A program made the position numbers and the translations under genes. From assembly GCF_003334385.1 (NCBI RefSeq), contig NZ_QOWN01000071.1: 8,756 nucleotides of DNA, one strand, 5' to 3'. The notes under the pieces were generated by a model, which worked only from the letters and a program-made list of their open reading frames with translations, made no database searches and had not been told where the DNA came from. Shown in pieces: positions 2,621 through 8,756 of the stretch (positions are counted from its first letter, which is position 1; every line of letters starts with the position of its first letter). This DNA comes from Escherichia coli. GTDB taxonomy: Bacteria; Pseudomonadota; Gammaproteobacteria; Enterobacterales; Enterobacteriaceae.

Positions 2621-2654
2621 TCGGAAAAGAAAAAAGGACGCAACAGCGTCCTTT
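2621..2654 (-). terminator. Rho-independent terminator downstream of the parR-like gene
   Basis: Stem AGGACGC (2635-2641) and GCGTCCT (2646-2652) with loop AACA. On the minus strand the hairpin is followed by a U-run (plus-strand A-run ggaaaagaaaaaa at 2621-2634). It sits 16 bp after the parR-like stop. Confidence 0.65.
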
Positions 2655-2669
2655 AACAGAGTTCAGTTC

Positions 2670-3098
2670 TTATTCATCATCCGGAAACAAGTTCTTAATG
2701 TTGTTTCTTGTTTCCAGGAGATTCTGATCGACTGGAGCAGATATTTCTTGCGTAGCAGAATCAACCGCAGGCAGGATCGTTTTTGCATTATTACCGGCAG
2801 ACTGCAGAAATGCCTCCAGCAAACGAACAACTTCACCATTTTCCTGTTGTGGTAGCGTACTACTGATAATTCGTTGAATATCCCGCATAGACGTGCTGTC
2901 TGTCAGGAATTCAGCTATCAGAAACGGCAATCGTTCATCCTGTTTCATCAATGCAGCACCACACAACATCATGGCCCGCATTGCCCGACCACGTTCTTTC
3001 TGAGGCAATTTTTCAAGAAACCTGTCAGCCACCCGATCAGCTGCATTTCGTTCCGGATAAATATAAAAAGAGCACTTACGATTATCAGCCATACTCAT
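2670..3098 (-). CDS. parR: ParR/StbB-like centromere-binding partition protein (142 aa)
   Basis: Small gene immediately downstream of the parM-like gene and overlapping it by 4 nt (ATGA). By recollection it resembles plasmid R1 ParR in its central part (...LPQKERGRAMRAMMLCGAALMKQDERLPFLIAEFLT...). An alternative start two codons in (3092) has better SD spacing. Confidence 0.65.
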   Translation of the reverse strand: MSMADNRKCSFYIYPERNAADRVADRFLEKLPQKERGRAMRAMMLCGAALMKQDERLPFLIAEFLTDSTSMRDIQRIISSTLPQQENGEVVRLLEAFLQSAGNNAKTILPAVDSATQEISAPVDQNLLETRNNIKNLFPDDE

Positions 3099-4075
3099 CC
3101 CTTCATTGCCATCATTCCCAACACCAGATCGAACTGAGGATTGTCACTGACAAAGAAACGGTTATCACCCACTCCTGTCGCTTTTTTTACTGCCCCAGCC
3201 ACAAGGCTGGCACCACCGCCAACAACCATAACATGAGTAAAACCAGCAAAGCGTCCTACTGAATCCGCCACACGATGCTGCAGTTTTTTTTCCCGGTCAC
3301 GTAATACTGTCAGGATCTGCTCACGCTGTTCTGCATTCGGGATATAACGAGTCAGGAATTCATTGTCATCCCGGCCCTGGATTAGACGATCTGCAAAATA
3401 AGAACTGGTTCGTGTACTCACATTCACATCCATCGCATGCTTAACTGCTTCAGTAATGATGGAAACGCCTGTCTTGGGGTCACAATAAGTTTTTGTGAAA
3501 CCGGACATTTTGCTGCGGACATGTGCAATATCAAGGGTCGTTCCACCGATATCAACGATCAACAGCGACTCCAGATCATTCAGATCTTTCAGCACGTCAA
3601 AACCGGCAGGCACGGACTCAGGCAAGACACTGACTTTACGAATGGTAAAGTTTTCACGCCCCTGAACTGTTACAGCTCGTCTGACATTATTTTTCTTACG
3701 TTCGATATTAGCCAGATTTGGCTGATCGTTCTCATCCAGATACTCACCTAAAGGTAAAGTCACAACAATATCAACAGGTTGCGGAGCAATACCTGACTGC
3801 ATCAACGCATGATGAATAGCAACCACATTAACGTCGCTGTACTGATAACGCGTTTCTGTGGTGCGCACTGCATCCGGACTCAATTGATCAAAGCTGTATT
3901 TCTCTCCATCAATCTCATAGTTTGCGGAAGCGGGTATAGTGGCATCAGTCAGTCCCTGCAGCGTCATAGACCATTCCGGTTTAAAACTATTCGGGCTAAT
4001 TAACGTTTTCACTGCACCGTCTTCAACCCAAGCCAGTTTGATGTTGGTAGAACCGTCATCTACAAAGATACGCAT
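3095..4075 (-). CDS. parM: ParM/StbA-like actin-family plasmid segregation ATPase
   Basis: The N-terminus MRIFVDDGSTNIKL, the phosphate-2-like LIVDIGGTTLDIAHV, and HVMVVGGGASLV match recalled ParM/StbA (R1/R100) motifs. I place the start at the ATG at 4075-4073, preceded by GTGAGGTTCTGG. The ORF track extends to a GTG at 4087 that overlaps that SD. Confidence 0.85.
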   Translation of the reverse strand: MRIFVDDGSTNIKLAWVEDGAVKTLISPNSFKPEWSMTLQGLTDATIPASANYEIDGEKYSFDQLSPDAVRTTETRYQYSDVNVVAIHHALMQSGIAPQPVDIVVTLPLGEYLDENDQPNLANIERKKNNVRRAVTVQGRENFTIRKVSVLPESVPAGFDVLKDLNDLESLLIVDIGGTTLDIAHVRSKMSGFTKTYCDPKTGVSIITEAVKHAMDVNVSTRTSSYFADRLIQGRDDNEFLTRYIPNAEQREQILTVLRDREKKLQHRVADSVGRFAGFTHVMVVGGGASLVAGAVKKATGVGDNRFFVSDNPQFDLVLGMMAMKG

Positions 4076-4087
4076 CCAGAACCTCAC

Positions 4088-4300
4088 AGAATAAAATGGA
4101 TTTTTTTAGAAAAATATGGTGTCGAAAAAGATTATCACCTAGAAACACGCATCAGTAAAGACCTGATATCGGCCACAAACAGAAAGATAAAGAAAAATAA
4201 AGACAAAAACCGACTCAAATAGCACACCAGGGAACAAACAAGAACAATAAAAGACAAATGCAGTTAAAATTCAGAAAAAAACTGAACAGGTGAACGGAGA
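4088..4300 (-). promoter_or_regulatory. AT-rich upstream region of the parMR-like operon (putative promoter and parC-like centromere)
   Basis: About 210 bp of A-rich non-coding sequence directly upstream of parM, where parC sits in known parMRC loci. Loose recurrences of aaagac/aaagat motifs are visible, but I could not delineate clear iterons by eye. Confidence 0.3.
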
Positions 4301-4664
4301 AGGGGGCTCATCCAGCACATGCTGTATTTGGGTTCAGTTTGGAATTCGGAAAATAAACCACGTTAAGACTATTTTTTAGCCAAATGGCTTTCAGGAATCG
4401 CCAGAATGGCGGGACAACAGTGGTTTTGGTGTCCGAAATCGTACAATTCTGTACATCTACGCAAGGAAATGTACGGAAGTAAGCCAAATGGTTATCGGAC
4501 GGTAGGAACATTTCGTACAGCCTTTACGTTCAGTGAGTGAGCTGGTCTGGATGTAACCACTCGTTCAACTCAATTCTCTTAGCGTGGGAAAATTTCCTTT
4601 CTCCAAGCGGCTCCCAAACCGTAATTCCCGGCAAGCCCGGTAAGCTGGGCAGCAAGCTAGGCAC

Positions 4665-4964
4665 TCAAAGAATGAACCGGGGATTCTGACGCTGACCTAC
4701 AACCGCCAGGATATTGACACGACGGGCCTTATCATTCACTTCATAAAGTACATGCTGCCCAAGTAAGCTAATACGACGAACCCCTTCGCCATAGCGTTCA
4801 TCAGTTTCATACAGCCGAGGGTAATCAGCCAGGCGATCGGTTGCAGTGATCAGACGCTCTGTCACGTTCCTTGCATCCCAAAGAGATGCATTCTCAGCCA
4901 GATATTCAAACAGCGCAGTTATATCTTCAATTGCACCTGGTCGCCATTCTATTTCATAACTCAT
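4665..4964 (-). CDS. RelE/ParE-superfamily toxin of a type II toxin-antitoxin module (99 aa)
   Basis: About 100-aa protein whose start overlaps the upstream small gene by 11 nt. The sequence pattern (YEIEWRPGAIEDI..., ...RRVNILAVVGQRQN) is consistent with RelE/ParE-fold toxins as I recall them. Confidence 0.7.
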   Translation of the reverse strand: MSYEIEWRPGAIEDITALFEYLAENASLWDARNVTERLITATDRLADYPRLYETDERYGEGVRRISLLGQHVLYEVNDKARRVNILAVVGQRQNPRFIL

Positions 4965-5217
4965 TGCGCAGTTCCTGATAACGTCCCTGTAGTTGCTGGC
5001 GCAGTTGCGCGGAACTCATTCCCGGCCGCTTATCGGCGCGAGCAGCGGCAACTTTCGCTCGTATCTGTTCGTCGTATTCTGCCCGTGCCAGTTCTTCATT
5101 AGCAAGGCGTTGCAATAGTGCAGACTTGTCTGTACTGCCTTCTGGAAAAATACGAGGCAGGCTTTCGGCCAGCTCGCGCAGGAAATTGGCGTTTTCGTAA
5201 TGTGTGGTGCTATTCAT
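4954..5217 (-). CDS. Putative antitoxin of the RelE/ParE-type module (87 aa from the second ATG)
   Basis: Small ORF upstream of and overlapping the toxin gene (antitoxin-first order). I prefer the second ATG at 5217 because the minus strand reads ATGAAGGGGGAGTCAACT-ATG, which places a GGGGGAG SD about 7 nt before it. The ORF track starts at 5235. Antitoxin family uncertain. Confidence 0.6.
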   Translation of the reverse strand: MNSTTHYENANFLRELAESLPRIFPEGSTDKSALLQRLANEELARAEYDEQIRAKVAAARADKRPGMSSAQLRQQLQGRYQELRNEL

Positions 5218-5291
5218 AGTTGACTCCCCCTTCATTTAATAAAGAGCAATTACAGGTTTTTTGATGTCGTACGCATGGGTATAACGAGTCA

Positions 5292-5812: not shown

Positions 5813-6010
5813 ATGGAATTAAAAGCGAGTGAATTTGGTGTAGTTTTGTCCGTTGATGCTCTTAAATTATCACGCCAGTCTCCATTAGGTGTTGGCATTG
5901 GTGGTGGTGGCGGCGGTAGCTGCGGTGGTCAAGGTGGCGGTTGTGGTGGTTGCAGCAACGGTTGTAGTGGTGGAAACGGTGGCAGCGGCGGAAGTGGTTC
6001 ACATATCTGA
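5813..6010 (+). CDS. mcbA: Microcin B17 precursor peptide McbA, variant with a shortened poly-Gly linker (65 aa)
   Basis: The translation MELKASEFGVVLSVDALKLSRQSPLG-VGIGGGGGG-SCGGQGGGCGGCSNGCSGGNGGSGGSGSHI matches the microcin B17 leader and core as I recall them, including the Gly-Ser-Cys and Gly-Cys-Ser heterocyclisation sites. Only 6 Gly codons (5900-5917) follow VGI. Confidence 0.95.
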   Translation: MELKASEFGVVLSVDALKLSRQSPLGVGIGGGGGGSCGGQGGGCGGCSNGCSGGNGGSGGSGSHI

Positions 6011-6027
6011 TACGTTGAATTAACCGT

Positions 6028-6050
6028 TCAGGGAGCATGGTGCTCCCTGA
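6028..6050 (+). promoter_or_regulatory. Perfect stem-loop between mcbA and mcbB (10-bp stem, 3-nt loop)
   Basis: tCAGGGAGCA (6028-6037), loop TGG, TGCTCCCTGa (6041-6050), verified base by base. It starts 18 nt after the mcbA stop and encloses the first in-frame ATG of the mcbB ORF (6037). It is not followed by a U-tract. Confidence 0.5.
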
Positions 6051-6924
6051 TATTAAAAAAGGAAAAGATATGATCAATATTCTGCCATTTGAGATAATTT
6101 CCAGAAATACAAAGACCCTGCTTATTACCTACATTTCTTCAGTAGACATTACACATGAGGGAATGAAAAAAGTACTCGAAAGCCTACGATCCAAACAGGG
6201 TATTATTTCTGAATACCTCCTTGATAAACTACTGGACGAATCGCTTATTGATAAAGACAAGGGCAAAGAGTTTCTTATTACCACAGGCGTGATAAATAAA
6301 ACGAAAACATCACCTCTCTGGGTAAACTCAGTCATAATAAGCGATGTTCCACATCTTTTCAGTAATGCCCGGGAACAATGGAAATCTGATGGTGTTTTTG
6401 TTTCTCATATCATTGATATAAAAGATAATAATATTAATGTGAGCGATTCAACACTAATCTGGTTACATCTCGAAAACTATCATTCAGACATTGTAAAAAG
6501 AATCTATTCAAAATTTGAAAGTAACCCTGGTGTTGCCTTCATCCAAAGCTACTACCTAAAGGAGTCATTCAGGATAGATGGAGTATATTCACCTGATCTT
6601 GGTACTCCCTGCCATTTTTGTCATATAGAGAGATGGCTGAGCAGGGAAGAAAAAAGCTTCAGACGTAACGAAATGTCCTGGGCAAATTTACTTCAGTTAC
6701 TGAAAAAATACTAAATGACACTACCAGCATTGGCTTTAGGCGAGTCAGAAAGAGGATTCAGCTATCATTTAATAAAACGGCGACTTCAGGAGTTGACAGG
6801 TACTTCACTGGTTAAAAGTCATGTCGATAGCTTTATGTCATCTGTTAGCGCTGATTTAATCACCTGTATTTTATGTAAAGAGCCGGTAATTCACTGGCAG
6901 GCTTGCAGCTGTCTGGAGAGATAA
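6037..6924 (+). pseudogene. mcbB: mcbB (microcin B17 synthetase zinc-binding scaffold subunit) interrupted by an in-frame TAA at 6712-6714
   Basis: The 225-aa ORF 6037-6714 and the 69-aa ORF 6715-6924 are in the same frame, separated only by TAA. Together they give 225+1+69 = 295 codons, which is the McbB length I recall. CHFCH lies in the N-terminal part and CILC...CSC in the C-terminal part. An RBS-supported alternative start is the ATG at 6070 (AGGA at 6060-6063). Confidence 0.8.
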
Positions 6925-6925
6925 C

Positions 6926-7744
6926 ATGTCAAAACACGAACTCTCTTTAGTGGAAGTAACGCATTACACAGATCCTGAAGTTCTGGCCATTGTTAAAGAT
7001 TTTCATGTCAGAGGTAACTTTGCTTCCCTCCCCGAATTTGCTGAACGAACTTTCGTGTCCGCGGTACCTCTTGCCCATCTGGAGAAATTTGAAAATAAAG
7101 AAGTTCTCTTCAGGCCAGGTTTCAGCTCCGTAATAAACATATCCTCATCACATAATTTTAGTCGTGAAAGGCTCCCATCAGGAATAAACTTTTGCGACAA
7201 AAATAAACTTTCCATTCGTACTATTGAAAAGTTATTAGTCAATGCATTCAGCTCACCTGATCCTAGCTCTGTAAGAAGACCTTATCCTTCTGGGGGGGCA
7301 TTGTGCCCGATTGAAGTTTTTTTATGCAGATTATCTGAAAATACAGAAAACTGGCAGTCAGGAACTAATGTTTATCACTACCTGCCGCTAAGTCAGGCAC
7401 TGGAACCTGTTGCTACATGTAATACTCAGTCACTCTACCGAAGCCTGTCCGGTGGGGATTCGGAACGTCTTGGTAAACCCCATTTTGCTCTCGTCTATTG
7501 CATTATTTTTGAAAAAGCTTTGTTCAAATATCGCTACAGAGGATACCGGATGGCCTTAATGGAAACAGGTTCGATGTATCAGAACGCAGTATTGGTTGCA
7601 GATCAAATAGGACTGAAAAACCGGGTATGGGCGGGATATACCGATTCATACGTAGCAAAAACAATGAATCTGGATCAGAGGACTGTAGCGCCACTGATCG
7701 TTCAGTTTTTTGGAGATGTAAACGATGATAAATGTCTACAGTAA
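6926..7744 (+). CDS. mcbC: McbC, FMN-dependent dehydrogenase of microcin B17 synthetase (272 aa)
   Basis: 272-aa ORF, matching the McbC length I recall. It starts 1 nt after the mcbB stop, with GGAGAG 7 nt upstream, and contains a nitroreductase-like RPYPSGGALCPIE region. The gene order follows the known mcb operon. Confidence 0.93.
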   Translation: MSKHELSLVEVTHYTDPEVLAIVKDFHVRGNFASLPEFAERTFVSAVPLAHLEKFENKEVLFRPGFSSVINISSSHNFSRERLPSGINFCDKNKLSIRTIEKLLVNAFSSPDPSSVRRPYPSGGALCPIEVFLCRLSENTENWQSGTNVYHYLPLSQALEPVATCNTQSLYRSLSGGDSERLGKPHFALVYCIIFEKALFKYRYRGYRMALMETGSMYQNAVLVADQIGLKNRVWAGYTDSYVAKTMNLDQRTVAPLIVQFFGDVNDDKCLQ

Positions 7745-8618
7745 CCTTATGTCCGCATGGCCGGCCACAATGGCCATGAGTCCAAAACTGAACAGAAATA
7801 TGCCAACGTTTTCTCAGATATGGGACTATGAGCGTATTACACCAGCCAGCGCGGCCGGTGAAACTCTGAAGTCAATTCAGGGGGCAATAGGTGAATATTT
7901 TGAACGCCGTCATTTTTTTAATGAGATAGTCACCGGTGGTCAGAAAACATTATATGAGATGATGCCTCCATCTGCTGCAAAGGCTTTTACCGAAGCATTT
8001 TTTCAGATCTCATCACTGACCCGCGATGAAATCATAACCCATAAATTTAAAACGGTCAGAGCCTTTAATCTGTTTAGCCTTGAACAACAAGAAATACCTG
8101 CAGTCATAATTGCACTCGACAATATAACCGCTGCAGATGATCTGAAATTTTATCCTGACAGAGATACATGCGGATGTAGCTTTCATGGTAGTTTGAACGA
8201 TGCCATAGAAGGTTCCTTGTGTGAATTTATGGAGAGACAGTCCCTCCTTCTTTACTGGTTACAGGGAAAAGCCAATACTGAAATATCCAGTGAAATAGTA
8301 ACAGGCATAAATCATATTGATGAGATTTTACTGGCTCTCAGGTCAGAAGGAGATATCAGGATTTTCGATATCACCCTGCCCGGAGCTCCTGGACACGCAG
8401 TACTAACCCTGTATGGCACAAAAAACAAAATCAGTCGAATAAAATACAGTACCGGATTATCCTATGCTAATAGTCTGAAAAAAGCACTTTGTAAATCCGT
8501 AGTGGAATTGTGGCAATCGTATATATGCCTGCACAACTTTCTTATTGGCGGTTATACTGATGATGACATTATTGATAGTTACCAGCGTCACTTTATGTCA
8601 TGCAACAAGTACGGGTAA
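7725..8618 (+). pseudogene. mcbD: mcbD (YcaO-type cyclodehydratase of microcin B17 synthetase) truncated by an IS1-family insertion
   Basis: The ORF starts MINVYSNLMSAW... and overlaps the mcbC end by 20 nt. It runs 296 mcbD codons and then ends in G-stop, where the codons are supplied by the IS1 terminal repeat (GG-TAA-TG). McbD is about 396 aa by recollection, so roughly the C-terminal 100 residues are missing. Confidence 0.88.
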
Positions 8619-8636
8619 TGACTCCAACTTACTGAT
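8614..8636. repeat. IS1 terminal inverted repeat (23 bp)
   Basis: GGTAATGACTCCAACTTACTGAT matches the IS1 terminal inverted repeat consensus. It directly abuts mcbD coding sequence. Confidence 0.75.
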
Positions 8637-8756
8637 AGTGTTTTATGTTCAGATAATGCCCGATGACCTTGTCATGCAACTCCACCGATTTTGAGAACGA
8701 CAGTAACTTCCGTCCCAGCCTTGCCAGATGTTGTCTCAGATTCAGATTATGTCGCT
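8629..8756 (-). CDS. insB: IS1 transposase InsB, C-terminal fragment (5' end outside the window)
   Basis: The minus-strand translation ...[41 protein letters not shown]-stop matches the IS1 InsB C-terminus from memory. The stop TAA is the complement of 8629-8631. Confidence 0.75.

Follow-up and report, generated by a model that had tools for sequence, protein, structure and literature searches.

The stretch from 4282 to 2633 of the window (the whole 8,756-nucleotide piece of Escherichia coli DNA analysed here) is, judged from its sequence, a type II (ParMRC) partition cassette, intact and carried on the minus strand. The components that would place it in this class, a ParM-family ATPase, a ribbon-helix-helix (RHH) adaptor encoded downstream of it and a putative centromere of direct repeats upstream, were all found. 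In the full account, which we consider probable, this intact cassette has its parC in the ~195 bp 5′ of parM, as two arms around one sigma-70 promoter. The locus is ordinary and mildly informative, not an aberrant ParMR system, because the centromere repeats that had seemed to be missing are present as an array of degenerate units spaced by 10 bp, where R1 has 11 bp. Promoter, parM, parR and terminator follow one another on the minus strand (4159-4131, 4075-3095, 3098-2670 and 2654-2633, respectively), with an ATGA stop/start overlap between the two genes, one promoter and one terminator. The features are the following:

4283 to 4330, no strand: left boundary of the par cassette; likeness to other par loci ends at ~4282-4288
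4171 to 4282, minus strand: putative upstream arm of parC, 11 degenerate direct repeats of ~10 bp (sense-strand consensus kTwTTTkTCT)
4131 to 4159, minus strand: par operon promoter (sigma-70), -35 TTTACT (4159-4154), 17-nt spacer, -10 GATAAT (4136-4131)
4088 to 4132, minus strand: putative downstream arm of parC or operator; three iteron-like units within the 5′ leader
4082 to 4085, minus strand: Shine-Dalgarno GAGG, 6 nt 5′ of the parM ATG, read from the sequence
3095 to 4075, minus strand: parM, actin-like segregation ATPase, 326 aa, identified from PDB, Pfam and identity to R1 ParM
2670 to 3098, minus strand: parR, RHH centromere-binding adaptor, 142 aa (PF10784, 2JD3)
2633 to 2654, minus strand: intrinsic terminator-like hairpin and T-run directly 3′ of parR, 9-bp stem with 5 G-C pairs, tail TTTCTTTTCC; end of the cassette

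An earlier sequence-only reading had rightly seen a ParM-like and a ParR-like gene within 2670-4300, which are parM (4075-3095) and parR (3098 or 3092 to 2670) on the minus strand, and had held that the ATPase has no more than the conserved motifs in common with R1 ParM. The latter cannot be maintained. Indeed, the two proteins are 53.8% identical over 318 aligned residues, at full length; the R1 ParM structure 1mwk is matched end to end (residues 1-322, E = 1.3e-103), and both Pfam ParM domains are present (PF06406 at 1.2e-78, PF21523 at 1.5e-68). The phosphate-binding motifs of the window protein (DDGSTNIK, PES and DIGGTTLD) line up with their R1 counterparts. The start codon is the ATG at 4075, which aligns with residue 1 of R1 ParM and fits the 981-nt CDS annotated in relatives, and TGTGAGGTTC is found at the same distance from the parM ATG in the IncM locus (L009). 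The GTG at 4087 of the open reading frame listing is an upstream extension of the parM frame.

The adaptor, previously described as only loosely ParR-like, also turns out to be a regular member of its family. It matches the full PF10784 (Plasmid_stab_B) model over residues 7-78 (E = 2.6e-31) and the pB171 ParR/StbB structure 2JD3 (E = 1.4e-8), and is 33.6% identical to R1 ParR and 77.9% identical to IncM ParR. Of its first 85 residues, a stretch that contains the DNA-binding domain, 79 are identical in the IncL/M protein. Its ATG at 3098 overlaps the parM stop codon; the PGAP start in relatives lies 6 nt later, at 3092, and gives a protein of 140 aa. ParM is presumed to be bound by the C-terminal tail of the protein (...LLETRNNIKNLFPDDE): a T-x-x-N motif is kept in all five aligned clades, and a tail E-T-[RK]-x-N-x-x-x-[LM]-[FI] can be aligned across the five, R1 among them (sequence alignment only). 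NCBIfam holds no specific model matching either protein.

Near-identical loci occur on at least 1,191 enterobacterial plasmids of PLSDB, across IncF, IncI1 and IncK. About 500 haplotypes of the upstream region were seen. The locus is therefore not an orphan and belongs to a very common ParMRC clade of enterobacterial resistance and virulence plasmids. The closest distinct clade is that of IncL/M, with 87.7% (ParM) and 77.9% (ParR) identity to the window proteins; its ‘parA-parB’ system (pCTX-M3 for IncM, pOXA-48 for IncL) in fact encodes ParM and ParR, and its centromere-like site, named parS, lies upstream. This sister system is functionally characterised: deletion of parA or parB in pOXA-48 leads to rapid plasmid loss (PMC12365149), and in pCTX-M3, where the centromere-like site lies 5′ of the first gene, the system is needed for stable inheritance (PMC8125031). 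Thus, of the proposal of a diverged ParMR-type partition locus, the type stands and the divergence was overstated; high identity to a characterised locus exists in part (88% for ParM and 78% for ParR, in round figures). The window shares with IncL/M the protein identity, the promoter position, the Shine-Dalgarno sequence and a 10-bp unit, (G/T)TATTTTTCT, whose copies flank the promoter on either side and are confined to the sense strand, but not the resD - parM - parR - nuc context. There, a hairpin and the resD recombinase gene precede the operon and nuc (phospholipase D family) follows parR, whereas the window cassette lacks all three, with no resD or nuc among the ORFs and the cassette flanks, and ends in a terminator.

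Where is the centromere? Ten clean 11-bp iterons, as expected from R1, are indeed lacking upstream of parM, as the sequence-only reading had noted: in the ~210 bp 5′ of the gene a phase test gives z ~0 at period 11, and five units on each side of the promoter, the R1/R100 arrangement, are not seen. The A-richness noted there is likewise real on the plus strand, and corresponds to T-richness on the parM sense strand. The conclusion that no iterons could be identified does not hold, as the region carries a phased 10-bp array. Its 11 units (two of 11 bp and nine of 10 bp) stop 11 bp before the -35 box and all lie on the sense strand:

4282, minus strand: array unit GTTTTTTTCTG
4271, minus strand: array unit AATTTTAACTG
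4260, minus strand: array unit CATTTGTCTT
4250, minus strand: array unit TTATTGTTCT
4240, minus strand: array unit TGTTTGTTCC
4230, minus strand: array unit CTGGTGTGCT
4220, minus strand: array unit ATTTGAGTCG
4210, minus strand: array unit GTTTTTGTCT
4200, minus strand: array unit TTATTTTTCT
4190, minus strand: array unit TTATCTTTCT
4180, minus strand: array unit GTTTGTGGCC

Units 2, 6, 7 and 11 fit the consensus poorly.

The array is recognised by its phasing. The lag-10 autocorrelation of the upstream region reaches z = 3.6-3.8 and the period-10 phase information z = 3.2-3.4 (P ~0.001), comparable to the 11-bp signal that the same phase test finds in the upstream half of an R1-type parC used as control (z = 3.55). 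With at most one mismatch allowed, TATTTTTCT has 10 sites in the window, where 2.9 are expected; five of these sites lie within 4108-4281 (array and leader), all on the minus strand, and no second cluster of this type of unit is found elsewhere in the window. Generic repeat finders are not sufficient alone to define the array: TRF returned a single hit in the window (4181-4207, unit of 10 bp, 2.7 copies), and a general repeat search gave short, chance-like two-copy families only. The TRF period is nevertheless 10 in the window, in IncM and in the L014 variant; for the R1 type TRF reports a period of 11 and scores it similarly. A repeat analysis could thus detect an array missed by eye, though a degenerate and not a clear one. 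The motif derived by a single-sequence EM run (3.4 bits of information) was not used to define the unit because it was weak and had out-of-register matches. Two further signals were not relied on: the periodicity of variable alignment columns, which was marginal (P ~0.06), and a tally of ‘invariant phased C’ positions, which was partly circular because the positions had been picked for invariance.

That the 10-bp signal is an accident arising from the composition of T-rich intergenic DNA, the centromere lying elsewhere (beyond the window, say, or 3′ of parR) or having been lost in a rearrangement beside the IS66 remnant, seems to us very improbable. The low information of the motif and the IS remnant adjoining the left end of the cassette would agree with it. 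So would the k-mer test, in which the best k-mer of the upstream region is not significantly over-represented relative to dinucleotide shuffles (P = 0.09-0.13); we judge this last test underpowered rather than negative because the validated R1 parC fails it too (P = 0.08-0.37). Against an accident, the phasing at P ~0.001 recurs in the sister clade, where the upstream DNA is otherwise poorly alignable (66.7% identity, shared mainly in TATTTTTCT, the -35 box, the Shine-Dalgarno sequence and one AAATCCATTTT block) and where the unit is significantly enriched upstream (0/200 shuffles reach it). The IncL/M upstream units, ~5-6, are fewer and cleaner than the ~11 of the window. Little room exists for a centromere 3′ of parR, with just ~15 nt between its stop codon and the terminator and F-type backbone from 2621, where homology to the backbone of the R1-type plasmid L001 stops. 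On the other side, the sequence beyond the left boundary is found in other plasmids at the end of IS66-family elements, and the conserved module starts at one identical point (~4282) whichever of four different flanks precedes it; this constancy indicates that the upstream array is complete. We infer that the array represents the putative ParR-binding repeats of the centromere.

The second arm would lie on the other side of the promoter, which is the sole promoter-like site of the upstream region. Its -10 hexamer is unchanged in the eight sequence variants of the locus, five of which carry single-position changes in the -35 (L005-L008, TTTACC; L008, TATACC), and an IncL/M counterpart, GTCTTTACA...TAATAAT, stands at the same position. 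The leader contains three iteron-like units:

4132-4123, minus strand, overlapping the -10 box: leader unit ATCTTTTTCG
4117-4108, minus strand: leader unit ATATTTTTCT
4097-4088, minus strand: leader unit ATTTTATTCT

The period-10 signal is weaker here (z = 2.0, P = 0.026). Downstream of the IncL/M promoter, GTATTTTTCC and GTTTTTTTCT are also present.

The two arms evolve very differently. A 28-nt leader block (4117-4090) is invariant in 8/8 variants, whereas no part of the locus is less conserved than the array: 37% of the array columns are variable and its substitution is 3-7 times faster than that of four-fold degenerate sites of the adjacent genes, with its length kept. The eight upstream variants diverge by up to 25% with almost no indels (0-3 gap columns), and all retain the register and the 10-bp phasing (z = 2.2-3.9). 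Substitution without indels would be expected from a coding constraint, and the array does overlap an open frame (4257-4135) for a small hydrophobic peptide of 40 aa; most variants are free of indels. This frame is effectively refuted as a gene, and we give the idea practically no credence: five of the eight variants have lost the start codon (TTT or TTA), the frame is shifted in L003, codon changes are 11-15 nonsynonymous against 2-4 synonymous, and the variable columns (9, 16 and 15 at codon positions 1, 2 and 3) show no third-position bias. The frame is expected from the composition of the strand, in which few A residues mean few stop codons.

ParR itself is at least 98% identical despite the array drift, and the T-tract-plus-C punctuation is preserved together with the 10-bp register. 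That the array is under an unusual evolutionary regime, in which ParR reads DNA shape and phasing instead of the bases, or in which the array diversifies, is a speculation that we rate as rather improbable; in-register gene conversion between units, or selection, could be the route of such a diversification. If it occurs, such a diversification would lessen centromere cross-talk (partition incompatibility) among co-resident IncF, IncI and IncK plasmids sharing ParM and ParR. In any case, a fast-evolving array that keeps its register raises the small question of how much sequence ParR reads. The faster array drift beside an invariant leader fits the leader as primary ParR site equally well.

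The true centromere or operator could then be the short invariant block at 4117-4088 (two or three units), perhaps with a few promoter-proximal units, and the array a curved, UP-element-like or H-NS-binding DNA modulating the promoter or easing wrapping. We regard this as possible though unlikely. A leader block without change beside 37% variable array columns speaks for it, and an array outpacing four-fold degenerate sites suggests weak sequence constraint. Furthermore, A/T tracts phased at 10 bp are a generic signature of curved DNA. pB171 offers a precedent: the sites reported for its ParR are no more than two direct repeats of 10 bp (PMC9426499, citing Ringgaard 2007). Yet every variant retains the array length, register and phasing, and the best array units are identical to leader units (TTATTTTTCT at 4200 versus ATATTTTTCT at 4117). 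The array unit is also tandemly repeated 5′ of the IncL/M promoter, and known ParR segrosomes require many adjoining sites (ten iterons in R1, a continuous array in pSK41; PMC5016525).

Our preferred reading, a parC made of both arms, suggests a mechanism by homology with R1, pB171 and pSK41. RHH dimers of ParR would bind the repeats cooperatively, one per ~10-bp unit and thus one per helical turn, wrapping the DNA as a ring or solenoid segrosome. The wrapped DNA may occlude the promoter or loop it out, which would make the operon autoregulated. The C-terminal tails of ParR (ETRNNIKNLF) would capture the ends of ATP-ParM filaments, whose insertional polymerisation would drive sister plasmids to opposite cell poles. 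The sequence itself shows which genes are present, how the operon is laid out, where promoter, terminator and cassette ends lie, and that the 10-bp phased repeat is conserved in the variants and the sister clade; we infer ParR binding to the units, the number of units that matter and the autoregulation.

As far as its sequence tells, the parC of this locus is an R1-like, promoter-sandwiching centromere with another period, strand polarity and distribution. Gene order, protein families and degenerate direct repeats flanking the operon promoter are as in R1/R100 parMRC (parA locus, stbAB). R1 parC has ten 11-bp iterons, five plus five, with an A/C-rich sense strand (AAACAAAACCC), whereas the window has units of ~10 bp, ~11 plus 3, a T-rich sense strand and TCT punctuation instead of CCC. 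The earlier suggestion that the centromere architecture may differ is therefore borne out in its details, though not in kind. A homology of the units to reverse-complemented R1 iterons was considered and dropped, the likeness in A/T tracts and phased G/C being too low in complexity for such a claim.

Another relative is par1 of pB171 (EPEC), whose ParR is homologous but belongs to another clade, with only weak sequence similarity (2JD3, E = 1.4e-8). Its centromere region is reportedly shared with a divergent type I locus, par2 (Ebersbach and Gerdes 2001). The window locus has no such par2-like partner. The pB171 repeats are described as 10-bp direct repeats (PMC9426499), as in the window, and its ParR forms a helical RHH scaffold (PMC5016525). 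The closest architectural analogue of the uninterrupted 11-unit arm is ParR/parC of pSK41 from Staphylococcus aureus, with a continuous array of 10-bp half-repeats, one RHH dimer per helical turn and a superhelical segrosome (PMC5016525). pSK41 differs in its unrelated sequences, Gram-positive host, well conserved 20-mers and a promoter that does not split the array.

Three other systems were set aside. Shigella pINV StbAB represents a different clade because its identity to R1 ParM is 42.5% (PMC6519299) versus 53.8% here. The stbAB of pEntH10407 is of the R100 type (99% identical; PMC2762410) and therefore not of the window clade, and the pESBL IncI1 system is of type Ib (PMC7602700) and not relevant to this locus.

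The main value of this analysis is one of clean-up: the locus is a member of a common ParMRC clade with a centromere of the usual logic. A limited literature search found no parC map for this clade (unit, register, two arms, invariant operator-like block). The candidate map given here would also apply to pOXA-48 and pCTX-M3, in which the partition genes are essential for stability. Predicting partition-mediated incompatibility, or designing anti-plasmid strategies, calls for a map of this kind.

The context of the cassette is an IS66-type remnant upstream and, beyond the terminator, the F-type backbone. The R1/R100 cassette occupies the same site in its F-like backbone, beside a 227-aa DNA methylase and a GC-rich spacer, and the window cassette is inverted relative to the backbone shared with the R1 type.

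The genes at 2670-4300 form a genuine ParMRC cassette, ordinary in kind and belonging to a widespread clade. Its putative centromere, which the sequence-only reading had left unresolved, can be resolved computationally into an array of degenerate repeats phased at 10 bp and a leader block that is conserved. The earlier observation was partly right and the gist of its interpretation holds, although the locus stands out less than had been suggested. Near-identical loci are present in at least 1,191 PLSDB plasmids, with IncF, IncI1 and IncK replicons.

The view that ParM has nothing but the conserved motifs in common with R1 ParM has to be abandoned, because the alignment of ORF 4075-3095 is near full length (R1 residues 1 to 322, E = 1.3e-103), with 53.8% identity and both Pfam ParM domains. 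The nucleotide-binding motifs DDGSTNIK, PES and DxGGTTLD are all present in this alignment. ORF 3098-2670, which overlaps the parM stop codon as ATGA, encodes a full-length PF10784 ParR/StbB protein (E = 2.6e-31), 33.6% identical to R1 ParR and with detectable homology to pB171 ParR, whose structure is solved (2JD3, E = 1.4e-8). Its C-terminal tail, LLETRNNIKNLF, can be aligned with those of four other ParR clades, among them that of R1, EETKKNAMKLIN, which is reportedly the ParM-binding peptide. The non-coding elements of the cassette are as follows:

4282-4171, minus (sense) strand: putative parC upstream array, eleven units in register, of the form kTwTTTkTCT
4159-4131, minus strand: sigma-70-like promoter (TTTACT, 17 nt, GATAAT), the sole one in 4282-4076
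4132, minus strand: leader unit 1, downstream of the -10 box, ATCTTTTTCG
4117, minus strand: leader unit 2, ATATTTTTCT
4097, minus strand: leader unit 3, ATTTTATTCT
4085-4082, minus strand: Shine-Dalgarno sequence, GAGG
2654-2633, minus strand: hairpin terminator after parR

Ten clean 11-bp iterons are absent, as had been noticed by eye; the period-11 signal is nil. Upstream of parM, the lag-10 autocorrelation reaches z = 3.6-3.8, and the phase-specific information at period 10 (4165-4260) reaches z = 3.2-3.4 (P about 0.001). The positive control for the phase test, the validated upstream half of the R1-type parC, gave z = 3.55 at period 11, and the signal found here therefore equals that of the textbook case. 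TRF reported period 10 in the window, in IncM and twice in the L014 plasmid variant; on the R1 type it reported period 11 with only 67% matches and a score similar to those of the period-10 cases. The best array copies are TTATTTTTCT, GTTTTTGTCT, TTATCTTTCT and GTTTTTTTCT, and the motif carries little information (3.4 bits). Allowing at most one mismatch, TATTTTTCT occurs 10 times in the whole window against 2.9 expected, half of these (5/10) clustering at 4108-4281 on the minus strand. The unit count within the upstream region was not significant against dinucleotide shuffles, a test by which R1 parC was also missed, and the periodicity of the variable alignment columns was only marginal. The arrays of the eight variants diverge by as much as 25%, yet period-10 phasing is kept in 8/8 (z = 2.2-3.9). 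We infer that ParR would bind the putative parC repeats.

The closest distinct clade, that of pOXA-48 (IncL) and pCTX-M3 (IncM), has ParM 87.7% and ParR 77.9% identical to those of the window, and 79 of the 85 N-terminal ParR residues, DNA-binding domain included, are the same. The upstream regions align poorly (66.7% identity, many gaps) and have in common mostly the unit TATTTTTCT, the -35 box, the Shine-Dalgarno sequence and one AAATCCATTTT block. In IncL/M, tandem copies of the unit read ATATTTTTCT GTATTTTTCT, and the enrichment of the unit is significant (0/200 shuffles). In both clades the units lie on the sense strand only and flank the promoter on both sides, the IncL/M promoter being at the equivalent position. 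The parM/parR-type genes of these plasmids are named parA and parB; deletion of either leads to rapid loss of pOXA-48 (PMC12365149), and according to a review of pCTX-M3, the first gene is preceded by a centromere-like parS (PMC8125031). The literature searched contains no published description of the centromere repeat architecture of this clade. The StbAB system of Shigella pINV, 42.5% identical to R1 ParM, belongs to another clade (PMC6519299), as does the R100-type stbAB of pEntH10407 (PMC2762410). In two plasmids with ParR of more distant clades, E. coli B7A pEB1 (L012) and K. pneumoniae pIncFII_3846 (L011), ParR is 41-45% identical and the upstream repeats are quite different, pEB1 carrying ATGTTTTTATATTGCATTTATG-like units upstream of parM and, some 400 bp upstream, a strong signal at period 11 (z = 7.3). 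This is consistent with centromere repeats that are particular to each ParR clade.

As in R1, where promoter-flanking repeats serve both centromere function and autorepression (PMC5016525), degenerate direct repeats lie on both sides of the promoter. The differences from R1 are a period of about 10 bp (11 in R1), a distribution of about 11 + 3 units (5 + 5 in R1) and a sense strand that is T-rich whereas that of R1 is A/C-rich. In architecture the uninterrupted 113-bp arm is nearer to pSK41, whose 10-bp half-repeats form a continuous array (PMC5016525), and the 10-bp period matches that of pB171 (PMC9426499, PMC5016525). By analogy with the pSK41 and pB171 structures, eleven 10-bp units might correspond roughly to the span of one turn of a ParR helix of about 12 dimers.

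The array (4171-4282) differs by 7-25% among variants (L002-L008, L014 and L015) that share at least 98% identity in ParM and ParR, against only 1.8-5.6% at the four-fold degenerate sites of full parM and parR (Fisher P from 0.026 to 1.7e-8), and with almost no indels. The same comparison of the IncM/IncL pair gave no array acceleration. The cause could be mosaicism through recombination, a relaxed constraint on sequence with selection on phasing only, in-register gene conversion or diversifying selection; a hidden small ORF was rejected, as it does not explain the pattern. The leader block at 4117-4090 (28 nt, minus strand), ATATTTTTCTAAAAAAATCCATTTTATT, is invariant in 8/8 upstream variants, and it is chiefly this contrast with the variable array that favours the rival view, in which the leader, rather than the upstream array, is the primary ParR site. 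In IncL/M a related block, TCTAAATAAATCCATTTTCTTTCT, sits outside the leader, some 200 bp ahead of the ATG. The invariant block, which we place with the phased array in the putative centromere, may act as an operator, as a translational element or in some other way. The -10 hexamer is also unchanged in 8/8 variants, and the -35 box differs at single positions in five (L005-L008 among them).

Backbone similarity to the R1-type plasmid L001 (92% identity) reaches window 2621 and stops in L001 at position 1326, about 10 bp short of the first R1 iteron. The GC-rich spacer 2276-2621, beside the 227-aa methylase, is 92-93% identical to the DNA directly preceding parC in L001; in the window it adjoins the parR terminator (junction 2621/2622), not parC. 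Both types of par cassette therefore occupy one and the same backbone site but face opposite ways. The sibling plasmid pEcoUTI1d carries an R1-type parMRC next to the same mcb operon, which fits the swapping of par modules as cassettes. At the other edge, similarity among the eight upstream variants starts at about 4282, outside which there are four different flanks. The first 48 nt or so of the window flank (4283-4330) match IS66-family element ends in other plasmids and are probably a rearrangement scar fixing the left edge of the cassette here; only the STEC299 plasmid pSTEC299_1 shares the exact junction. The boundaries at 2621 and about 4282 thus limit the cis-acting region to 4282-4076. 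Between the array and the toxin-antitoxin module, 4283-4664 is non-coding.

The 8.7-kb window is a piece of an F-like enterobacterial plasmid, with these modules:

1592-2275: DNA methyltransferase, 227 aa (NF010253, E = 7e-148), leading-region-type backbone, left part
middle of the window, minus strand: par cassette, GC about 46%
4665-5235, minus strand: RelE/ParE-type toxin-antitoxin pair (PF05016 at 9e-13, and annotations)
5813-8616: microcin B17 operon (mcb)
8616-8756, right edge: IS1-family end, 100% identical to IS1F copies in E. coli genomes

GC content steps down from 56-59% (1-2650) through about 46% (par cassette) to 35-43% (mcb operon), which fits a mosaic of modules of different origins. 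The 99-aa product of the toxin-antitoxin module is a ParE-family toxin (PF05016, 9e-13) and its 93-aa upstream partner weakly matches RelB antitoxin; with 2,410 PLSDB records, this module is widespread on plasmids of enterobacteria. On the plus strand, the microcin B17 synthetase gene mcbB has an in-frame TAA at 6712-6714, where pEcoUTI1d has CAA; McbB is thereby divided into two ORFs of 225 and 69 aa, each matching TIGR04424, and barring a sequencing error there, the microcin operon is probably inactive. The window lacks mcbE, mcbF and mcbG, the genes for immunity and export, and mcbD (YcaO/SagD-like) is truncated at about 8616 by the IS1-family end. At least 126 plasmids cover 80% or more of the query, and among the matches listed (n=8) mcb similarity stops at the same point.
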